From: Escherichia coli | GTDB taxonomy: Bacteria > Pseudomonadota > Gammaproteobacteria > Enterobacterales > Enterobacteriaceae | Strand: one strand, 5' to 3' | Assembly (NCBI RefSeq): GCF_003334765.1 | Contig: NZ_QOWT01000023.1 | DNA length: 64,000 nt | Part shown: positions 45,963 to 53,192 of the stretch, one piece after another | How positions within the stretch are numbered: position 1 is the stretch's first letter | Layout of the letters: each line of letters starts with the position of its first letter | Position numbers and translations under genes: made by a program | The notes under the pieces: generated by a model | Seen by the model: only the letters and a program-made list of their open reading frames with translations | The model's database searches: none | What the model was told of the DNA's origin: nothing

Positions 45963-47825
45963 ATGCAAACCAACCGGAGAGCACAGCATATGCGCACATT
46001 TACAAATCTGTTGTATGATATTTGTACTGTTCTGGGGTTGTTCAGGGAAGGCGAGAACCCGGCACACAAGCGGAAGAGCACTAATTTCGAAATGCATCAA
46101 AAATTCTGGGATCAACGTTACAATGCGATCAGTCGTATTATTGATGCTGAAGGGGTGTATAGTCAGGAGCAACGGCGGATCATATATGCCCGGTATGAAC
46201 ATTTTTATTACATGATGAATTCTTATCCAGTTCATTCCACACTAAAATCTGAATTCCTTCGCAGCTATTGTCTGCGCACTTTTGGGGTTATTTTTCTTGT
46301 TGTAGATATTTATAATACATACAGACCAGAGAATGACTCTGCTTTTTATTATCATATTTATAATTTTTTACAGAAGTCGTATTGTCCTTGTCTTGATCAC
46401 TCTGATACAGAAAGCGATGAAGCTGCTGTTAAACGTTATCTTCGGGAATATCTGGCAGAACTGGGATTCAACAAGGAAGATTTTCATGAAAATGGAAAGT
46501 TGTATGCTCTGGGGAAATATACAGGAACTATTCGGAGGGATAACGGGAAAAGCAAGAGTCTGATGAAACAATATATCATGTCTATCAAAAATGAATATAA
46601 AAAGGATTATCGGGAGAAGAAACTGGATAAGGATGAACTGGAGAAATTACTCAGGAATATTGATAAATTCTATAATGCATTTTATTCATTAAGTGTCTTA
46701 CTTGATATACAACGAAAGACGAAGATACTTCAAAGCCTTGCATATTATCTCAGAGTGTTGGTGAGAAAGGGGCTCTGGACTCATGGTTTATATGGTTACG
46801 CTGAGCAATATCTTTATGACTTTACCAGCTTGGATACAACGCCTTATGCAAAAAAATTACTGGAAATGTTTTATAAGTTTGAAAACAGTGCAGAAGGGAC
46901 ATTGGCTCGTTATAATGTATCACTTGATGATAAATCTCAGGAATATATTGCCCGTCTGAAAGATCTTGTATTTAATATTAATGAGAAGAATGGTTGTGAT
47001 GACGCATATCTGAAAATGATTATAAGTCATTTTGGGCAGTTGCAGAATGAGGCTGTTCATGTGACCAGCTGCTACGGAACACTTGCGGTGTACATTTGTC
47101 TGATAAGGAAAAATAAAATTAATGATGTGCTGCATCATTATGATGACATGGAAAGAAAAGGATTGTTTGCTGAATTACCTTCAGGATATATCAGGGGGGC
47201 ATTATCGTTGCTTCGGACAGCACTGGAGGTTAAAGTAAATAGAAAAAATATAAAGTATGGCTCGTTGTTTTATTGGCTTGACCATGTAAAAGCTCATCAG
47301 GATGCATTTATTGAATCAATACCACTTATTGATCCTGTATATAAGGAGGGTGAAATACAGTATGATGCGAACAATTTTACCCTGATGCGTGTTATTAAGA
47401 TGTATAATTGTATGCTTGAAAAGATCAGTACGAAACCATATATAGCTCCCCCATATATTACAGGTTTGCTTGATGACGTAGAGAAGGTGCTGGATAAGAT
47501 AAATATTCTGATAGATAAAGAGTATGTTTATGATGGTAAGACACTGGCTGAAGTCATTATAGAGAACAAAGTATTATCCAGTCGCGAGCGTAAAGATACT
47601 ATGATAGGGCTTTTCACAGGCAGTAAGAAATATACTTTACTGCAATGTGTTGAGAAGCTTGGTGTATTAGTTCACTACGTGAAATCACCGGTCGATGAAA
47701 TTAAAAATGTGATGATGTTGTATGGCGATAAGGCCGAAAACAGGAACAGACGCAGAATGATATATGATGCGTTAACCATTATTTGTGAGGATGATAACAG
47801 GGCTAAACACCCTGATCTGTCGTGA
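45963..47825 (+). CDS. hypothetical protein, 620 aa (611 aa if start is the ATG at 45990); no recognisable domain
   Basis: Long uninterrupted AT-rich ORF divergent from alpA, rich in K/Y/N/I/E and predicted mainly helical. No Walker, nuclease, HTH or transmembrane motif recognised by eye. Confidence 0.6.
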   Translation: MQTNRRAQHMRTFTNLLYDICTVLGLFREGENPAHKRKSTNFEMHQKFWDQRYNAISRIIDAEGVYSQEQRRIIYARYEHFYYMMNSYPVHSTLKSEFLRSYCLRTFGVIFLVVDIYNTYRPENDSAFYYHIYNFLQKSYCPCLDHSDTESDEAAVKRYLREYLAELGFNKEDFHENGKLYALGKYTGTIRRDNGKSKSLMKQYIMSIKNEYKKDYREKKLDKDELEKLLRNIDKFYNAFYSLSVLLDIQRKTKILQSLAYYLRVLVRKGLWTHGLYGYAEQYLYDFTSLDTTPYAKKLLEMFYKFENSAEGTLARYNVSLDDKSQEYIARLKDLVFNINEKNGCDDAYLKMIISHFGQLQNEAVHVTSCYGTLAVYICLIRKNKINDVLHHYDDMERKGLFAELPSGYIRGALSLLRTALEVKVNRKNIKYGSLFYWLDHVKAHQDAFIESIPLIDPVYKEGEIQYDANNFTLMRVIKMYNCMLEKISTKPYIAPPYITGLLDDVEKVLDKINILIDKEYVYDGKTLAEVIIENKVLSSRERKDTMIGLFTGSKKYTLLQCVEKLGVLVHYVKSPVDEIKNVMMLYGDKAENRNRRRMIYDALTIICEDDNRAKHPDLS

Positions 47826-47861
47826 ACTCATCTGAGTGTGTTTTGAGTCAATAATCTTTAT

Positions 47862-47908
47862 ATCCCCCTGCTAATTTTGCTAACCATTAGCAAAATTAGC
47901 AGGGGGAT
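47862..47908. repeat. perfect 22-bp-arm inverted repeat (palindrome) 3' of the 620-aa ORF
   Basis: atccccctgctaattttgctaa-cca-ttagcaaaattagcagggggat; arms 47862-47883 and 47887-47908. Confidence 0.9.
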
Positions 47909-48176
47909 TATCTATGTCTGGCAAGAGAAAATTCTATAATAGTATGATTTCTTTGTTTATTTTGTTTTTCAATTAGAATGGTGTGTTTTTGTGATCTATG
48001 TCTAATTGTTTTGTATTCTTAGCGCCATCCCATTCATGGGCAGATGTACATACCGCCCCTATTAGATTGATGGGTTGCATGTTCATTGTATCTGTAAAAT
48101 ATGCCAGTTTTGACATTAATACATAATCTGTAATTCGGTGTAAGCTCTTGTCTGGTGAATTATGTTGCGTATTCCG

Positions 48177-48246
48177 CTCTATTCGATCACGGATTGGGCC
48201 AAATCATGATCGATTCGAATGCCAAACTGCGATCGATTCAGATGCC
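48177..48246 (+). repeat. GATC-containing direct repeats (iteron-like) in AT-rich non-coding region
   Basis: gatcgattcgaatgcc (48208-48223) and gatcgattcagatgcc (48231-48246), plus related attcgatcac at 48181-48190. Three Dam GATC sites fall within about 50 bp. Confidence 0.6.
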
Positions 48247-49200
48247 ATTTTGCATTATGTTAGTGGCTTATTCTTCTTGTTCTTTTTTACAGGTTATGTA
48301 AGTGTGATTATCCTGATTACTGGTCACTCATTATATACTGAGTCGACAAAACAAATGAGTATTAACTGAAGTTTTTATACAGTGATCATCTGTCTGGTTA
48401 GGTTAGTTAGTTCTGGGAGAATCACATTTATTTCATATACCATGAATAATTAAGGTTAATTAGTATTATTAGTTGGAGTTATGGTATTGTGTGTCTGTGC
48501 CGTATTGTTTGTATATTTGTTGTATAACTTATCTCTTTACGTGGTAATGTCACTCCTCTTTATGCTAAGTATTCTGTATGTGTGTAATGCATATATCTCC
48601 ATACACTACGCAGTGAAGCATATGGGGGAAGCTGTATGGTGAATTATGTGTGTAATGTTGTCCTGTACGTACTTAACACTGGTTACGTATCGGAACACTA
48701 TTAGAGCGTGTTATGACTCCGTTACAGTTTATAGGTATAGGTAAATATGATCTTTTCTGTATGGAACAATCTTCTTATGGTGTGTGGGTATGTTCTGTAT
48801 ACCATTATTCTTTTATGCTAATGATTAAATACCCGTGGTCTCTCTCGGCTTTACTTAATGGTTCGACAATATTAATAGCGATGTTGCCTGTAGCTAGCCG
48901 ATACTGAGTTTTGTGAATGTCAGATTACTTCCTGTAAAGAATTTAGTGGTGCTTCCTGAAACTCAATTCTATGAGGTGTGTTTTTCCATTGTAATTCGTA
49001 CTGGTTCTCAGTTTAAGAGAGTCTCACTGTATTCTGAAGTATTACCTCATCACAGTAATGCGGTAATACAAAACAGTTTTATCAGGTTGTCTGTGCTGCT
49101 GGTTTACTTCGTTTATTAATGCCGTGGTACGGCGTTTCTCTACTCTCAGTATTTACGTAAGTCTCTCTTCCTGTGAGTTTTATAAAGTAAGGACTATAAA

Positions 49201-49764
49201 ATGTATAATGCCAATCCCAATTACAAAATGGATTTCATGATTCTGAAAGACGTGAATGAACACATGGATGGTATGTTTCAACGTTTTTCTAAACTGTTAC
49301 CTTTCAGAATTGATTTTGCTTACAGGAAAGACACGCCCAGTTTCGGTCATTCCTGTAAGCACAGTATGTGTATGGAAATATACCGTTTACTTTGCGAAAC
49401 CCAGACGATGTTGGCGGGATATTACTGGGTAATGGAATATACACCAGACAAAGGGCTTCATATTCATTTTGTCGGCTACCTGGATGGGCAACGTCACAAG
49501 AACTCTTATCAGATATCCAGGCAACTGGGAGATATCTGGAGGCGGATCACGGAAGGGGAGGGTTACTTTCACCTTTGCCGGGCTAAAGACAAATACCCGG
49601 TGCGTATCGATCACGTGATGCACTATAGTGATAAGTCCGCGGTAGACAACTTACGTTACGCCCTTAGCTATCTGGCTAAACAGGATCAGAAAGAACACGG
49701 TATTATTCTGGGCCGTAGCAGGCTTCCCGAAAAAAGCAACCGGGGCCGACCACGACATAACTGA
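49201..49764 (+). CDS. YagK/YfjJ-family (inovirus Gp2-like) protein with HUH-type motif
   Basis: 187-aa ORF containing GLHIHFVGY (His-hydrophobic-His) and a downstream Tyr-containing region, reminiscent of rolling-circle/HUH initiators and CP4-57 YfjJ. Confidence 0.5.
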   Translation: MYNANPNYKMDFMILKDVNEHMDGMFQRFSKLLPFRIDFAYRKDTPSFGHSCKHSMCMEIYRLLCETQTMLAGYYWVMEYTPDKGLHIHFVGYLDGQRHKNSYQISRQLGDIWRRITEGEGYFHLCRAKDKYPVRIDHVMHYSDKSAVDNLRYALSYLAKQDQKEHGIILGRSRLPEKSNRGRPRHN

Positions 49765-49840
49765 ATTACAGTTGTATTAGGTATTAGAATTAAGTTTCTG
49801 TAAGTTGTTGGGAGGTGCTTGAGTTAATAGGCAGAAGAGG

Positions 49841-52279
49841 GTGGGGCGCTTTGTCATCAGTGTAGGGGACCCGAATTTCTGCCGTGGTGCCTCAGTGGAT
49901 CGGATACAGGTAACGAATATGGTTCATAAATCTGACAGTGATGAATTAGCTGCATTGAGGGCAGAAAATGCCCGTCTGGTCTCATTACTTGAAGCTCATG
50001 GGATTGAATGGCGACGTAAACCGCCGATCTCTGTGCAGCGCGTTTCTGTATTATCCACCAATGAGAAGGTTGCATTATTTCGTCGGTTGTTTCGCGGGCG
50101 TGATGATGTATGGGCACTTAGATGGGAAAGTAAAACCAGCGGCAAATCAGGGTACTCTCCTGCCTGCGCTAACGAATGGCAGGCGAGAATATGCGGTAAG
50201 CCCCGGATAAAATGTGGGGACTGCGCTCACCGTCAGTTGATTCCTGTATCTGATCTCGTCATCTACTACCATCTGGCAGGTACCCATACTGCCGGGATGT
50301 ATCCGTTGCTGGAAGATGATTCCTGTTATTTTCTGGCTGTTGATTTTGATGAAGCTGAATGGCAGAAGGATGCATCCGCATTCATGCGATCCTGTGATGA
50401 GCTGGGTGTACCCGCTGCGCTGGAAATATCCCGTTCACGTCAGGGAGCGCATGTCTGGATATTTTTTGCTTCACGAGTTTCGGCCCGCGAAGCTCGCCGT
50501 CTGGGGACTGCTATTATTAGTTATACGTGTAATCGAACTCGACAGCTGCGATTGGGTTCTTATGACCGATTATTTCCTAATCAGGATACGATGCCAAAAG
50601 GGGGATTTGGTAATCTCATAGCATTACCTCTGCAAAAAAGACCGCGTGAATCGGGGGGAAGTGTTTTTGTTGATATGAATTTCCAGCCTTATTCTGATCA
50701 ATGGGCTTTTCTTGCATCGGTGATCCCGATGAATGTGCAGAATATTGAACCGACGATATTACGGGCTACAGGAAGTATCCATCCTCTGGATGTGAACTTT
50801 ATCAACGAAGAAGACCTGGGTACGCCATGGGAAGGGAAAAAATCATCAGGAAACAGACTGAATATTTCTATTGCAGAACCGCTGAAAATCACGCTGGCAA
50901 ACCAGATCTATTTCGAAAAAGCGCAATTACCTCAGGTGCTGATTAACCGACTTATTCGGCTGGCAGCATTTCCGAACCCTGAGTTTTATAAGGCTCAGGC
51001 AATGCGTATGTCAGTCTGGAATAAGCCCCGTGTTATAGGTTGTGCGGAGAATTACCCGCAACACATTGCGTTGCCCCAGGGATGTCTGGACAGCGTATTA
51101 TCTTTCCTTAGGGACAACAATATTGCTGCAGAATTAATCGATAAACGATTTGTCGGGACGGAATGTAATGCCGTTTTTATGGGAAACCTCAGAGCGGAGC
51201 AGGAAGAGGCCGTTTCGGCATTACTCCGTTATGACACTGGTGTGCTTTGTGCGCCAACGGCTTTTGGTAAGACAGTTACCGCAGCGGCAGTGATTGCCAG
51301 ACGGAAAGTGAATACACTGATACTGGTACACCGGACTGAATTGCTGAAGCAGTGGCAGGAGCGTCTCGAGGTGTTTCTGCAGGTTGGTGACAATATTGGT
51401 ATTATCGGGGGAGGTAAACATAAACCCTGTGGCAATATTGATATTGCGGTGGTGCAGTCCATATCCAGACACGGAGAAGTTGAACCTCTGGTCAGGAATT
51501 ATGGGCAAATCATTGTGGATGAGTGCCATCATATTGGCGCGGTTTCATTTTCTGCGATTCTGAAGGAAACGAATGCCAGATATCTGCTTGGCCTGACGGC
51601 AACACCAATCCGACGGGATGGTCTGCATCCCATTATTTTTATGTACTGTGGTGCCATTCGCCATACAGCGGTCCGCCCGAAGGAAAGCCCACATAATCTG
51701 GAGGTACTGACCCGTTCCCGTTTTACATCTGGTCATTTACCATCGGATGCGAGAATCCAGGATATTTTCAGAGAAATTGCTCTGGATCATGACAGAACGG
51801 TGGCGATAGCTGAAGAAGCCATGAAAGCTTTCGGGCAGGGGCGAAAAGTTCTGGTACTGACTGAACGTACAGATCATCTGGATGAGATAGCATCAGTGAT
51901 GAATTCACTGAAATTGTCCCCCTTTATTCTCCATGGACGACTATCGAAAAAAAAGCGTGCGATGCTGATATCCGGGCTGAATGCTCTTCCTCCTGATTCT
52001 CCCCGTATTTTGTTGTCAACAGGCAGACTTATTGGTGAGGGATTTGACCACCCTCCGCTGGATACGCTGATTCTTGCCATGCCTGTGTCATGGAAAGGGA
52101 CATTACAGCAGTATGCGGGACGTCTACACAGAGAGCATACCGGTAAAAGCGATGTCAGGATCATTGATTTTGTGGATACCGCGTATCCAGTGCTGCTCAG
52201 AATGTGGGATAAACGCCAGCGGGGTTATAAGGCGATGGGGTACAGGATTGTGGCTGATGGTGAAGGGCTTTCATTTTAA
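49841..52279 (+). CDS. PrimPol-like (AEP) N-terminal domain fused to SF2 DExH helicase
   Basis: Helicase motifs: I APTAFGKT, II IVDECHH, III GLTATP, VI QYAGRLHR. N-terminal region has AEP-like motifs FLAVDFDE (DxD) and QGAHVWIFF (sxH) plus a Cys cluster CGKPRIKCGDCAH. Likely start is the ATG at 49919 (MVHKSD). Confidence 0.7.
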   Translation: MGRFVISVGDPNFCRGASVDRIQVTNMVHKSDSDELAALRAENARLVSLLEAHGIEWRRKPPISVQRVSVLSTNEKVALFRRLFRGRDDVWALRWESKTSGKSGYSPACANEWQARICGKPRIKCGDCAHRQLIPVSDLVIYYHLAGTHTAGMYPLLEDDSCYFLAVDFDEAEWQKDASAFMRSCDELGVPAALEISRSRQGAHVWIFFASRVSAREARRLGTAIISYTCNRTRQLRLGSYDRLFPNQDTMPKGGFGNLIALPLQKRPRESGGSVFVDMNFQPYSDQWAFLASVIPMNVQNIEPTILRATGSIHPLDVNFINEEDLGTPWEGKKSSGNRLNISIAEPLKITLANQIYFEKAQLPQVLINRLIRLAAFPNPEFYKAQAMRMSVWNKPRVIGCAENYPQHIALPQGCLDSVLSFLRDNNIAAELIDKRFVGTECNAVFMGNLRAEQEEAVSALLRYDTGVLCAPTAFGKTVTAAAVIARRKVNTLILVHRTELLKQWQERLEVFLQVGDNIGIIGGGKHKPCGNIDIAVVQSISRHGEVEPLVRNYGQIIVDECHHIGAVSFSAILKETNARYLLGLTATPIRRDGLHPIIFMYCGAIRHTAVRPKESPHNLEVLTRSRFTSGHLPSDARIQDIFREIALDHDRTVAIAEEAMKAFGQGRKVLVLTERTDHLDEIASVMNSLKLSPFILHGRLSKKKRAMLISGLNALPPDSPRILLSTGRLIGEGFDHPPLDTLILAMPVSWKGTLQQYAGRLHREHTGKSDVRIIDFVDTAYPVLLRMWDKRQRGYKAMGYRIVADGEGLSF

Positions 52280-52296
52280 GGAGTACTTTACCCTTT

Positions 52297-52512
52297 TTAA
52301 ATAATTTGAGCTCCCCGGGTTGTTCGGGCAACAAAGAGTCCCAGTATACAGGCTTCAGGAATATGTTGTAGTATCAGGCTTTTCATCGCTTTAAAATGGC
52401 TACCGGCAGTAAGAACGTCATCAAAAATAACAATCCAGGGCCTGCATCCCTCCAGTAATTGTTCATTCAGTTGGTAGTTTGCCATAATCGCTTCTGGTGA
52501 GGGCCGGTTTGT
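52297..52512 (-). pseudogene. phosphoribosyltransferase (ComF/GntX-like PRTase) C-terminal fragment, truncated by IS66-family insertion
   Basis: ...PWIVIFDDVLTAGSHFKAMKSLILQ carries the type-I PRTase PRPP-binding motif. The reading frame runs straight into the IS66-family terminus at 52514. Confidence 0.55.
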
Positions 52513-52551
52513 TGGTAAGCGTGCAGCAAGAACCGTATTGACGGGGATGTG

Positions 52552-52899
52552 TTATTCAGTCGGCAGTGCTACGCGCCAGGGGAGCAGTTCGCCGACCCGG
52601 TTTATCGGCCAGTCGGCTATGACGTCAAGGACATAGCGGAGGTAGCTTTCTGGCTCCACTCCGTTCAGTTTGCACGTCCCGATCAGGCTGTACAGCAGCG
52701 CTCCCCGCTCTCCTCCATGATCCGAACCGAAGAACAGGTAATTTTTGCGGCCCAGACTGACCATCCGCAGCGCATTCTCAGCTATGTTGTTATCAGCCTC
52801 GGCCCAGCCGTCGTCAGTATAGTAAGCCAGCGCTGGCCACTGGTTCAGTACGTACGTGAACGCTTTCGCCAGTTCTGAGTGTCGCGACAGGGTTTTCAC
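52552..52899 (-). pseudogene. IS66-family transposase TnpC, C-terminal fragment
   Basis: ...NNIAENALRMVSLGRKNYLFFGSDHGGERGALLYSLIGTCKLNGVEPESYLRYVL...ELLPW is the conserved IS66 transposase C-terminus; the N-terminal part (about 400 aa) is absent. Confidence 0.8.
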
Positions 52900-52928
52900 C
52901 TTTTCACGTAGCCAGCCTTCCAGGGATT

Positions 52929-53192
52929 TCAGTCGCCTTTGTCATCGCGGGCCGACGGCCAGGCGAAGCGGCCACGCTCCAGCCGTTTGGTCAGCAGACA
53001 CAGTCCATCGCCGGTAGACCAGAGGAGCTTTACCTGACTGCCATTACGCCCACGGAAGATAAAAACGTGACCTGACATCGGATCGTCTTTCAGCGTCGTC
53101 TGCACCTTTGCCGCCAGGCCGTTGAAGCCGTTTCTCATATCGGTGATGCCAGCGACGAGCCAGATCTTTGTCCCTGATGGTAATGGGATCAA
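52929..53192 (-). CDS. IS66-family accessory protein TnpB (Orf2)
   Basis: 87-aa ORF MIPLPSGTKIWLVAGITDMRNGFNGLAAKV..., typical IS66 orfB. Confidence 0.8.
   Translation of the reverse strand: MIPLPSGTKIWLVAGITDMRNGFNGLAAKVQTTLKDDPMSGHVFIFRGRNGSQVKLLWSTGDGLCLLTKRLERGRFAWPSARDDKGD

Follow-up and report, generated by a model that had tools for sequence, protein, structure and literature searches.

A phosphoribosyltransferase gene fragment beside an AEP-TOTE helicase gene in an Escherichia coli island is very probably the decayed remnant of a ShosTA toxin gene

Results

The window analyzed here is the whole stretch of 64,000 nucleotides of Escherichia coli DNA (contig NZ_QOWT01000023.1). It shares 99.8% identity with an E. 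coli NCTC9082 island comprising an integrase, DUF3987, an HTH gene, a 620-aa open reading frame (ORF), a Gp2-type gene, a helicase, the gene fragment described below, an IS cluster and espI. The fragment occupies positions 52297..52514 on the minus strand, and blastn, protein identity, PADLOC and codon comparison identified it as the 3' remnant of shosT, with codons 138–208 of 208 plus the stop codon; it thus retains 218 of 627 nt (35% of the gene) and 71 of the 208 codons. Its minus-strand ORF at 52297..52485 encodes 62 aa (MANYQLNEQLLEGCRPWIVIFDDVLTAGSHFKAMKSLILQHIPEACILGLFVARTTRGAQII) and is labelled hypothetical protein WP_000035067.1 in the RefSeq annotation of identical loci. The phosphoribosyltransferase (PRTase) motif that the preliminary description placed at the C-terminus of a minus-strand frame is indeed there: translation revealed the PRPP-binding loop IVIFDDVLTAGSH at 52396..52434 (minus strand), corresponding to residues 164–176 of the intact protein, and D168/D169 of this motif were invariant in an alignment of 24 homologues. 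The frame remains open for 12 more codons upstream, across the IS junction, until a stop at 52552-52554, which the IS66 tnpC frame shares. The earlier reading of a frame running uninterrupted into an IS66 terminus at 52514 was correct, its position being right within 1 nt.

Converging on the fragment is an intact AEP-TOTE primase-polymerase/SF2 helicase gene (49841..52279, plus strand), identified from its RefSeq name and from Pfam matches to AEP-TOTE (2.3e-98), ResIII and Helicase_C. Its longest ORF begins with a GTG at 49841, and the RefSeq CDS, of 786 aa, spans 49919-52279. Between the end of this ORF at 52279 and the stop codon of the remnant (52297-52299) lies a 17-bp spacer (52280..52296) that is identical in the intact locus. 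Upstream of the helicase is a gene of 187 aa (49201..49764, plus strand), of YagK/YfjJ type or 'inovirus Gp2-type' by its RefSeq names, with weak Pfam matches to REP_ORF2-G2P and YagK_YfjJ_C. The 620-aa ORF (45963-47825) lies in a low-GC (34–37%) segment, in place of the yfjI-type gene of related islands, and had no match in Pfam, NCBIfam or PADLOC. Between it and the Gp2-type gene, positions 47826-49200 form a 1.37-kb stretch of 33–38% GC with short ORFs only, which opens with a perfect 22-nt inverted repeat (47862-47908), is only 75–90% identical to the corresponding region in the island of the intact locus and had no Rfam match.

The intact counterpart of the fragment is a 208-codon E. coli gene (protein P0055) found in six loci, L007-L012, and the remnant protein is 100% identical to its residues 139–208. 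Reading these loci, we located shosA, a DprA-like gene of 297 aa (PF02481), at 8111-9004 and shosT at 9001-9627, overlapping the shosA stop by 4 bp. The gene order is shosA, shosT, 17 bp, the convergent AEP-TOTE helicase, the 187-aa Gp2/YfjJ-type gene, DUF3987 and AlpA, which bears out the proposal that the PRTase gene originally lay tail to tail with the helicase gene, with 17 bp between the stops. P0055 matched the PADLOC ShosT model PDLC03962 over its full length (E 1.5e-50, positions 2–213), and the E. coli ShosA matched the ShosA model PDLC03961 (303 positions), also over its full length (E 4.1e-103). Salmonella proteins likewise match PDLC03962 and PDLC03961 end to end, the E-values for the two genera ranging from 1e-50 to 1e-103. 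The remnant itself matched PDLC03962 with E 3.1e-18 at profile positions 143–213 of 237 (~30% of the model), while a search of NCBIfam with the remnant gave no match. The suggestion that the PRTase gene belonged to a toxin/antitoxin anti-phage module is thus supported by the ShosT model match and by the ShosA partner in intact loci. The remnant and the intact allele both match the curated ShosT profile, and the PRTase fold with its PRPP-loop DD pair is present. The window copy has no complete catalytic domain, which makes it a remnant of a family member and not a functional member, and it has no adjacent shosA, whereas the intact allele follows shosA in an operon.

A first homologue search, with a 72-aa fragment as the query, returned only short or mis-called proteins of 45–126 aa. 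We rejected a family of small proteins as the source of the remnant: in the Salmonella locus a TTG start, which overlaps the stop of the upstream DprA-like gene, had been missed, and the real protein has 214 aa. With the full-length query we retrieved a family of 208–218-aa proteins from Enterobacterales and beyond.

At the other end of the fragment, L007 9410..13506 aligns by blastn with window positions 52514..48425, and homology to the intact locus stops at 52514. A terminal repeat search located an IS66-family end (GTAAGCGTGCAGCAAGAACC) beginning at 52515 and an identical copy from 63888; the repeat common to both copies begins at 52514, so that the junction lies between 52514 and 52515 with one G ambiguous. 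Together with the identity to P0055, this upholds the description of a PRTase-domain gene that was truncated where an IS66-family end now lies. ORFs, the terminal repeat search and RefSeq annotation of identical loci define an internally deleted IS66-family element with a GTAAGCG... end at 52515..53626 (minus strand). Its minus-strand ORFs correspond to the 3' part of tnpC (52552-52899), a truncated tnpB (52929-53192) and tnpA (53189-53626), and an IS3-family element starting near 53659 interrupts it at the far end. The GTAAGCG end and the tnpA-tnpB-tnpC set, in which tnpB and tnpC are truncated, place the element in the IS66 family, and an IS66 annotation is also found in the RefSeq loci of NCTC9082 and FDAARGOS_1260.

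The preliminary description attributed the loss of the N-terminal part to an IS insertion. IS66 does lie at the cut, but more than an insertion took place. By tblastn, neither a displaced 5' half of shosT nor shosA was found anywhere in the 64-kb window, and genomes with the IS66-cut allele contain one place only that matches the shosA-shosT operon; the upstream part was therefore deleted, not displaced. The loss in the window lineage amounts to 409 nt of shosT and all of shosA, with IS66 abutting codon 137/138. No inverted copy of the IS66 end was found in the window. The second copy of the end (63887-64000) lies at the window edge in the same orientation; its 114 nt equal 52514-52627, and another GTAAGCG-type end (63873) directly precedes it. 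With 11.4 kb between them, the two direct copies could promote additional deletions of the segment that contains espI.

We then followed the operon through 5426 complete E. coli genomes. Some shosAT DNA was present in 688 of them and an intact shosA-shosT in 38, so that the intact PRTase gene could be recovered from islands free of the IS, as had been hoped. DNA 5' of the window's breakpoint is kept in 516 of the 688 carriers, which leaves ~172 genomes with the IS66 junction, in agreement with the 172 genomes that match at ≥99% identity. An independent cut is found in ~475 genomes (O157:H7, O26, O111, O145 and others), at codon 59 beside an IS30 remnant, and in a third class, represented by AZ146 and comprising only a few genomes, the break lies near codon 99 next to an Rpn gene; these two classes and the 38 intact genomes account for the 516. 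A '1414' breakpoint class was rejected as a separate event, as it represents the same IS66 junction with boundary SNPs. Examples of the sister remnants are L001 6510-6953 (O157:H7, codon 59/IS30) and L006 6510-6857 (AZ146, ~codon 99/Rpn). Codon comparison showed that the O157-type remnant carries W163* and six non-synonymous changes including R122W, which the AZ146 remnant shares; R122 is invariant in the family, and its replacement may have inactivated the toxin before the deletions took place. These sister remnants are decaying pseudogenes. All three truncation classes (IS66, IS30 and Rpn-side) remove shosA together with the 5' end of shosT. We infer that joint loss of the antitoxin and the toxin 5' end is the only viable route by which the module can be lost, since loss of the antitoxin alone would be lethal.

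Mapped onto an AlphaFold2 model of the whole protein (pLDDT 89.5), the remnant of shosT in the window covers two core beta-strands, one helix and the PRPP loop. It keeps 12 of 42 family-invariant residues, the other 30 being in the missing N-terminal 137 residues. The remnant region had no Rfam match, and a simple promoter scan detected no sigma-70-like site upstream of the 62-aa ORF, which suggests that this ORF is not expressed. Given the 12 of 42 invariant residues and the lack of a promoter-like site upstream, we regard the remnant as a pseudogene, and we expect that its product could neither fold nor act as a PRTase. There is a very slim chance that the 62-aa ORF is instead a retained small protein, for instance a PRPP-loop peptide, or a fragment with a dominant-negative or regulatory role, expressed from the IS66 end: it starts with ATG, its frame is open, its protein is unchanged from the intact allele in ~172 genomes and RefSeq annotates it as a CDS. 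Yet a recent event would leave the protein identical to the intact allele, so that the identity carries no signal of selection, the O157-type sister remnants have acquired a nonsense codon and non-synonymous changes, and the promoter scan and the two surviving strands speak for a pseudogene.

To which gene the PRTase was functionally tied is answered by its neighbours in other genomes. Scanning one genome per species (GTDB) with the ShosT alignment yielded 41 loci from Proteobacteria, Acidobacteriota, Planctomycetota, Chloroflexota, Bacillota and others, of which 40 are intact or nearly intact and one is a 36-aa fragment. By tblastn, ShosA lies immediately upstream in 38 of the 40, and an AEP-TOTE domain was found near ShosT in none of the 41; two loci show generic SF2-helicase similarity only, 5–6 kb away. 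The pairing exceptions are a frameshifted, degenerate ShosT flanked on either side by a SWIM/SNF2 helicase gene, from a gammaproteobacterial MAG (L049 10001-10606), and a full-length ShosT without an upstream DprA-like gene in a Paracoccaceae genome (L029 9911-10597). Nor was an AEP-TOTE helicase present in any of 10 enterobacterial ShosT loci outside the E. coli island lineage. Salmonella (on a chromosomal islet and an ICE), Klebsiella pneumoniae and Serratia have the same 4-bp shosA/shosT overlap without the helicase or a Gp2-type gene. In Serratia the pair lies beside HicAB on a P2-like prophage, where gpA and the portal gene flank the site. Three such Serratia prophages (L065-L067) carry short ShosTA at this position, next to HicAB or other small cargo; hotspots of this kind are also where Rousset et al. 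came upon the long DprA+PRTase system. The ShosT family also occurs in phages of Burkholderia, Pseudomonas and Ralstonia, and the phage records Mana and Riah have a DprA-like or nucleotide-binding protein annotated at the match.

These results bear on the two-gene accessory or defence system of PRTase and PrimPol-helicase, inactivated by an IS, that the preliminary description envisaged. The tail-to-tail arrangement with its identical 17-bp spacer recurs in every E. coli genome with a remnant or an intact shosT, and, because SSB and primase-helicase genes are where phage escape from ShosTA has been mapped (PMC12961424), a thematic link between ShosTA and a primase-helicase is conceivable. However, shosT converges on the helicase gene but is translationally coupled to shosA, ShosA is nearly always present where the AEP-TOTE helicase is not, and the two genes part company even within E. 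coli: the full-length helicase allele is present in 684 of the 5426 genomes, in ~650 of them beside a destroyed shosTA, and ~1080 genomes have lost most of the helicase too. Co-occurrence of helicase and PRTase genes across genomes proved to be confined to one E. coli island lineage, where the adjacency is real and ancestral, and was not found across independent lineages; since all the E. coli co-occurrences trace to that lineage, they count as a single observation. We therefore consider the helicase–PRTase pair highly unlikely as a system. The lost two-gene system is ShosA plus ShosT; the functional partner of the PRTase is ShosA, and the helicase is a neighbour of ShosTA, not a component of it.

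Pfam gave no match on P0055 and detected Pribosyltran in only 3 of 24 family members, and the family profile, run as an HMM against PDB sequences, found no ShosT chain. In a fold search with the AlphaFold2 model of the intact protein, the best PDB match was ShosT 8zvc (E 2e-5, TM 0.52, 14% identity) and the second-best was H. pylori ComF (7P0H). Island ShosA is closer to S. pneumoniae DprA 3UQZ (8e-31) than to crystallised ShosA (4e-21). What supports the assignment to ShosTA is thus the match to the PADLOC models, the presence of a DprA-like partner and a structural match that is modest.

An ordinary ComF/GntX-type housekeeping paralogue unlinked to the helicase had been offered as the opposite outcome. 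The second-best structural match and the name 'ComF family protein', given to P0055 in some database sources, point in that direction, and outside the island lineage the gene is indeed unlinked to the helicase. The housekeeping part did not hold. A DprA-like gene constantly accompanies the PRTase gene, and the two match the PADLOC ShosA and ShosT models; the settings of the PRTase gene are mobile elements (an ICE, a P2-like prophage hotspot near HicAB, phage genomes and a CP4-57-like island); and presence in 688 of 5426 E. coli genomes, intact in 38, is not the distribution of a housekeeping gene. A housekeeping PRTase with no conflict function has next to no likelihood, and the gene is a mobile-element-borne toxin gene.

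The island itself offers another explanation for the adjacency. Its backbone (integrase, AlpA-type HTH, DUF3987/YfjI and YfjJ/Gp2-type genes) resembles CP4-57 of K-12 (intA, alpA, yfjI, yfjJ). In K-12 CP4-57, the place after yfjJ is occupied by the AbpAB and RnlAB defence systems, and in another strain the same site holds a 1652-aa AAA protein, which suggests that the site after the yfjJ-like gene in CP4-57-type islands behaves as a hotspot for defence cargo. Such behaviour is enough to explain the adjacency of ShosTA and the AEP helicase. K-12 YfjK was rejected as the counterpart of the helicase, as that position in K-12 holds abpB/abpA on the other strand. The helicase gene of ~1080 of the 5426 genomes, exemplified by L054, L055 and L056 (FCI23, FDAARGOS_448 and strain 158), is reduced to a 5' stub of 300–430 nt followed by unrelated cargo: a 1652-aa AAA protein, aerobactin-adjacent genes or IS1-cat-Tn3-integron. 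The boundary of backbone and cargo is a hotspot of recombination or deletion, marked by the helicase gene.

Discussion

Taken together, our analyses make it very probable that the fragment is a non-functional 3' remnant of shosT, the PRTase toxin gene of a ShosTA toxin–antitoxin and anti-phage system. The ancestral island carried a shosA-shosT operon at the start of its variable cargo region, converging on the AEP-TOTE helicase gene. In the window lineage, an IS66-family element has come to abut codon 137/138, everything upstream being lost. The helicase and shosT would then be neighbours because both lie in a defence or cargo hotspot of a CP4-57-like island, and not because they work together.

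ShosTA was reportedly described by Kimelman in 2012. It was also presented as 'DprA + PRTase' from APEC O1 (Rousset, 2022) and is reported by Millman (2022). ShosT binds PRPP and disturbs purine metabolism, leading to DNA duplication and filamentation. Its action is countered by ShosA, a dimer of the DprA type that binds ssDNA and RecA but not ShosT itself; the system is triggered by T7 Gp0.7 or by phage ssDNA (PMC11961720; PMC12961424). The characterised APEC O1 ShosT has 424 aa, with an N-terminal pyrophosphatase-fold domain and a PRTase domain, and loses its toxicity in the D331A/D332A mutant, the equivalent of D168/D169 (PMC11961720). By homology, the intact island ShosT would bind PRPP and derail purine metabolism, resulting in replication stress and filamentation, the intact ShosA, as an ssDNA- and RecA-binding DprA-like dimer, would counteract it without binding it, and phage ssDNA or host shut-off would release the toxicity.

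PADLOC files the intact E. coli protein under ShosTA; it represents a short subtype of ShosT with the PRTase domain only, far removed from the 424-aa form. The N-terminal pyrophosphatase-fold domain is absent from the intact homologues, which are PRTase-only proteins of 208–218 aa. Our literature search found no experiment on the short subtype, the published tests that it covered concerning the 424-aa APEC O1 protein, and the subtype appears to be uncharacterised.

A bolder pair of proposals is that the helicase and shosTA, 17 bp apart, form a functional unit after all and, separately, that the short ShosT has a different substrate from the 424-aa ShosT; we judge them improbable. If the first were true, the DprA-like ShosA might monitor an ssDNA/RecA state that the PrimPol-helicase creates, or, alternatively, convergent transcription might tune expression of the toxin, and the repeated loss of shosTA would reflect the cost of coupling it to the helicase.

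As a decayed copy of a catalogued defence system, the remnant has little discovery value. Its use lies in annotation: the 62-aa WP_000035067.1 is a remnant of a shosT pseudogene, and so are the related ORFs of 58 aa and 104 aa that occur in O157-type and other strains. It also provides a clean example of the loss of a toxin–antitoxin defence module, in which the antitoxin gene and the 5' end of the toxin gene went in one step, in three events, leaving a working operon in only 38 of 688 carrier genomes. Modest leads are the short PRTase-only ShosT subtype and the defence-cargo hotspot after the yfjJ-like gene of CP4-57-type islands.

Several known systems invite comparison. TOTE conflict systems are named, as far as the account cited in PMC12458937 goes, after TPR, OB, TBP and Effector (Aravind et al., 2022). 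The window helicase shares the AEP-TOTE Pfam domain with them, and the PRTase remnant is unrelated to TOTE. No TPR, OB-fold (CSD) or TBP companion was detected upstream of the helicase, in the 187-aa gene or the 620-aa ORF, with Pfam, NCBIfam and PADLOC, and its downstream neighbour is the shosT remnant, so that the locus does not have the composition of a TOTE system; the helicase is either a stand-alone defence gene or part of an island replication module with the Gp2-type protein. PRTase effectors are also found in retrons, but no reverse transcriptase or msr/msd-like element was seen beside shosTA in any locus examined. With ComF (H. pylori 7P0H) and DprA of natural transformation the island pair shares a PRTase fold type and a DprA homologue, but it differs from the competence genes in its carriage on mobile elements, its patchy distribution and its pairing in a toxin–antitoxin operon. 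In PsyrTA/RqlHI, PsyrA is also a DprA-like antitoxin; the island ShosA matches the PsyrA model with E 8e-27, more weakly than the ShosA model (4e-103).

The closest likeness is to ShosTA of APEC O1 (structures 8ZVA-8ZVD and 9VZO), in which a DprA-like antitoxin gene is likewise followed by a PRTase toxin gene with a DD motif in its PRPP loop, and which is likewise carried on mobile elements and in prophage hotspots. The E. coli island ShosT differs in being a PRTase-only protein of 208 aa, of which the window keeps the last 71 codons, without shosA. From the ShosTA of PADLOC (PDLC03962, 237 positions) the intact allele shows no difference, while the window copy covers ~30% of the model and has no ShosA. 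The remnant is shosT, a known kind of element in a decayed state that is already recognised by current defence-system profiles.
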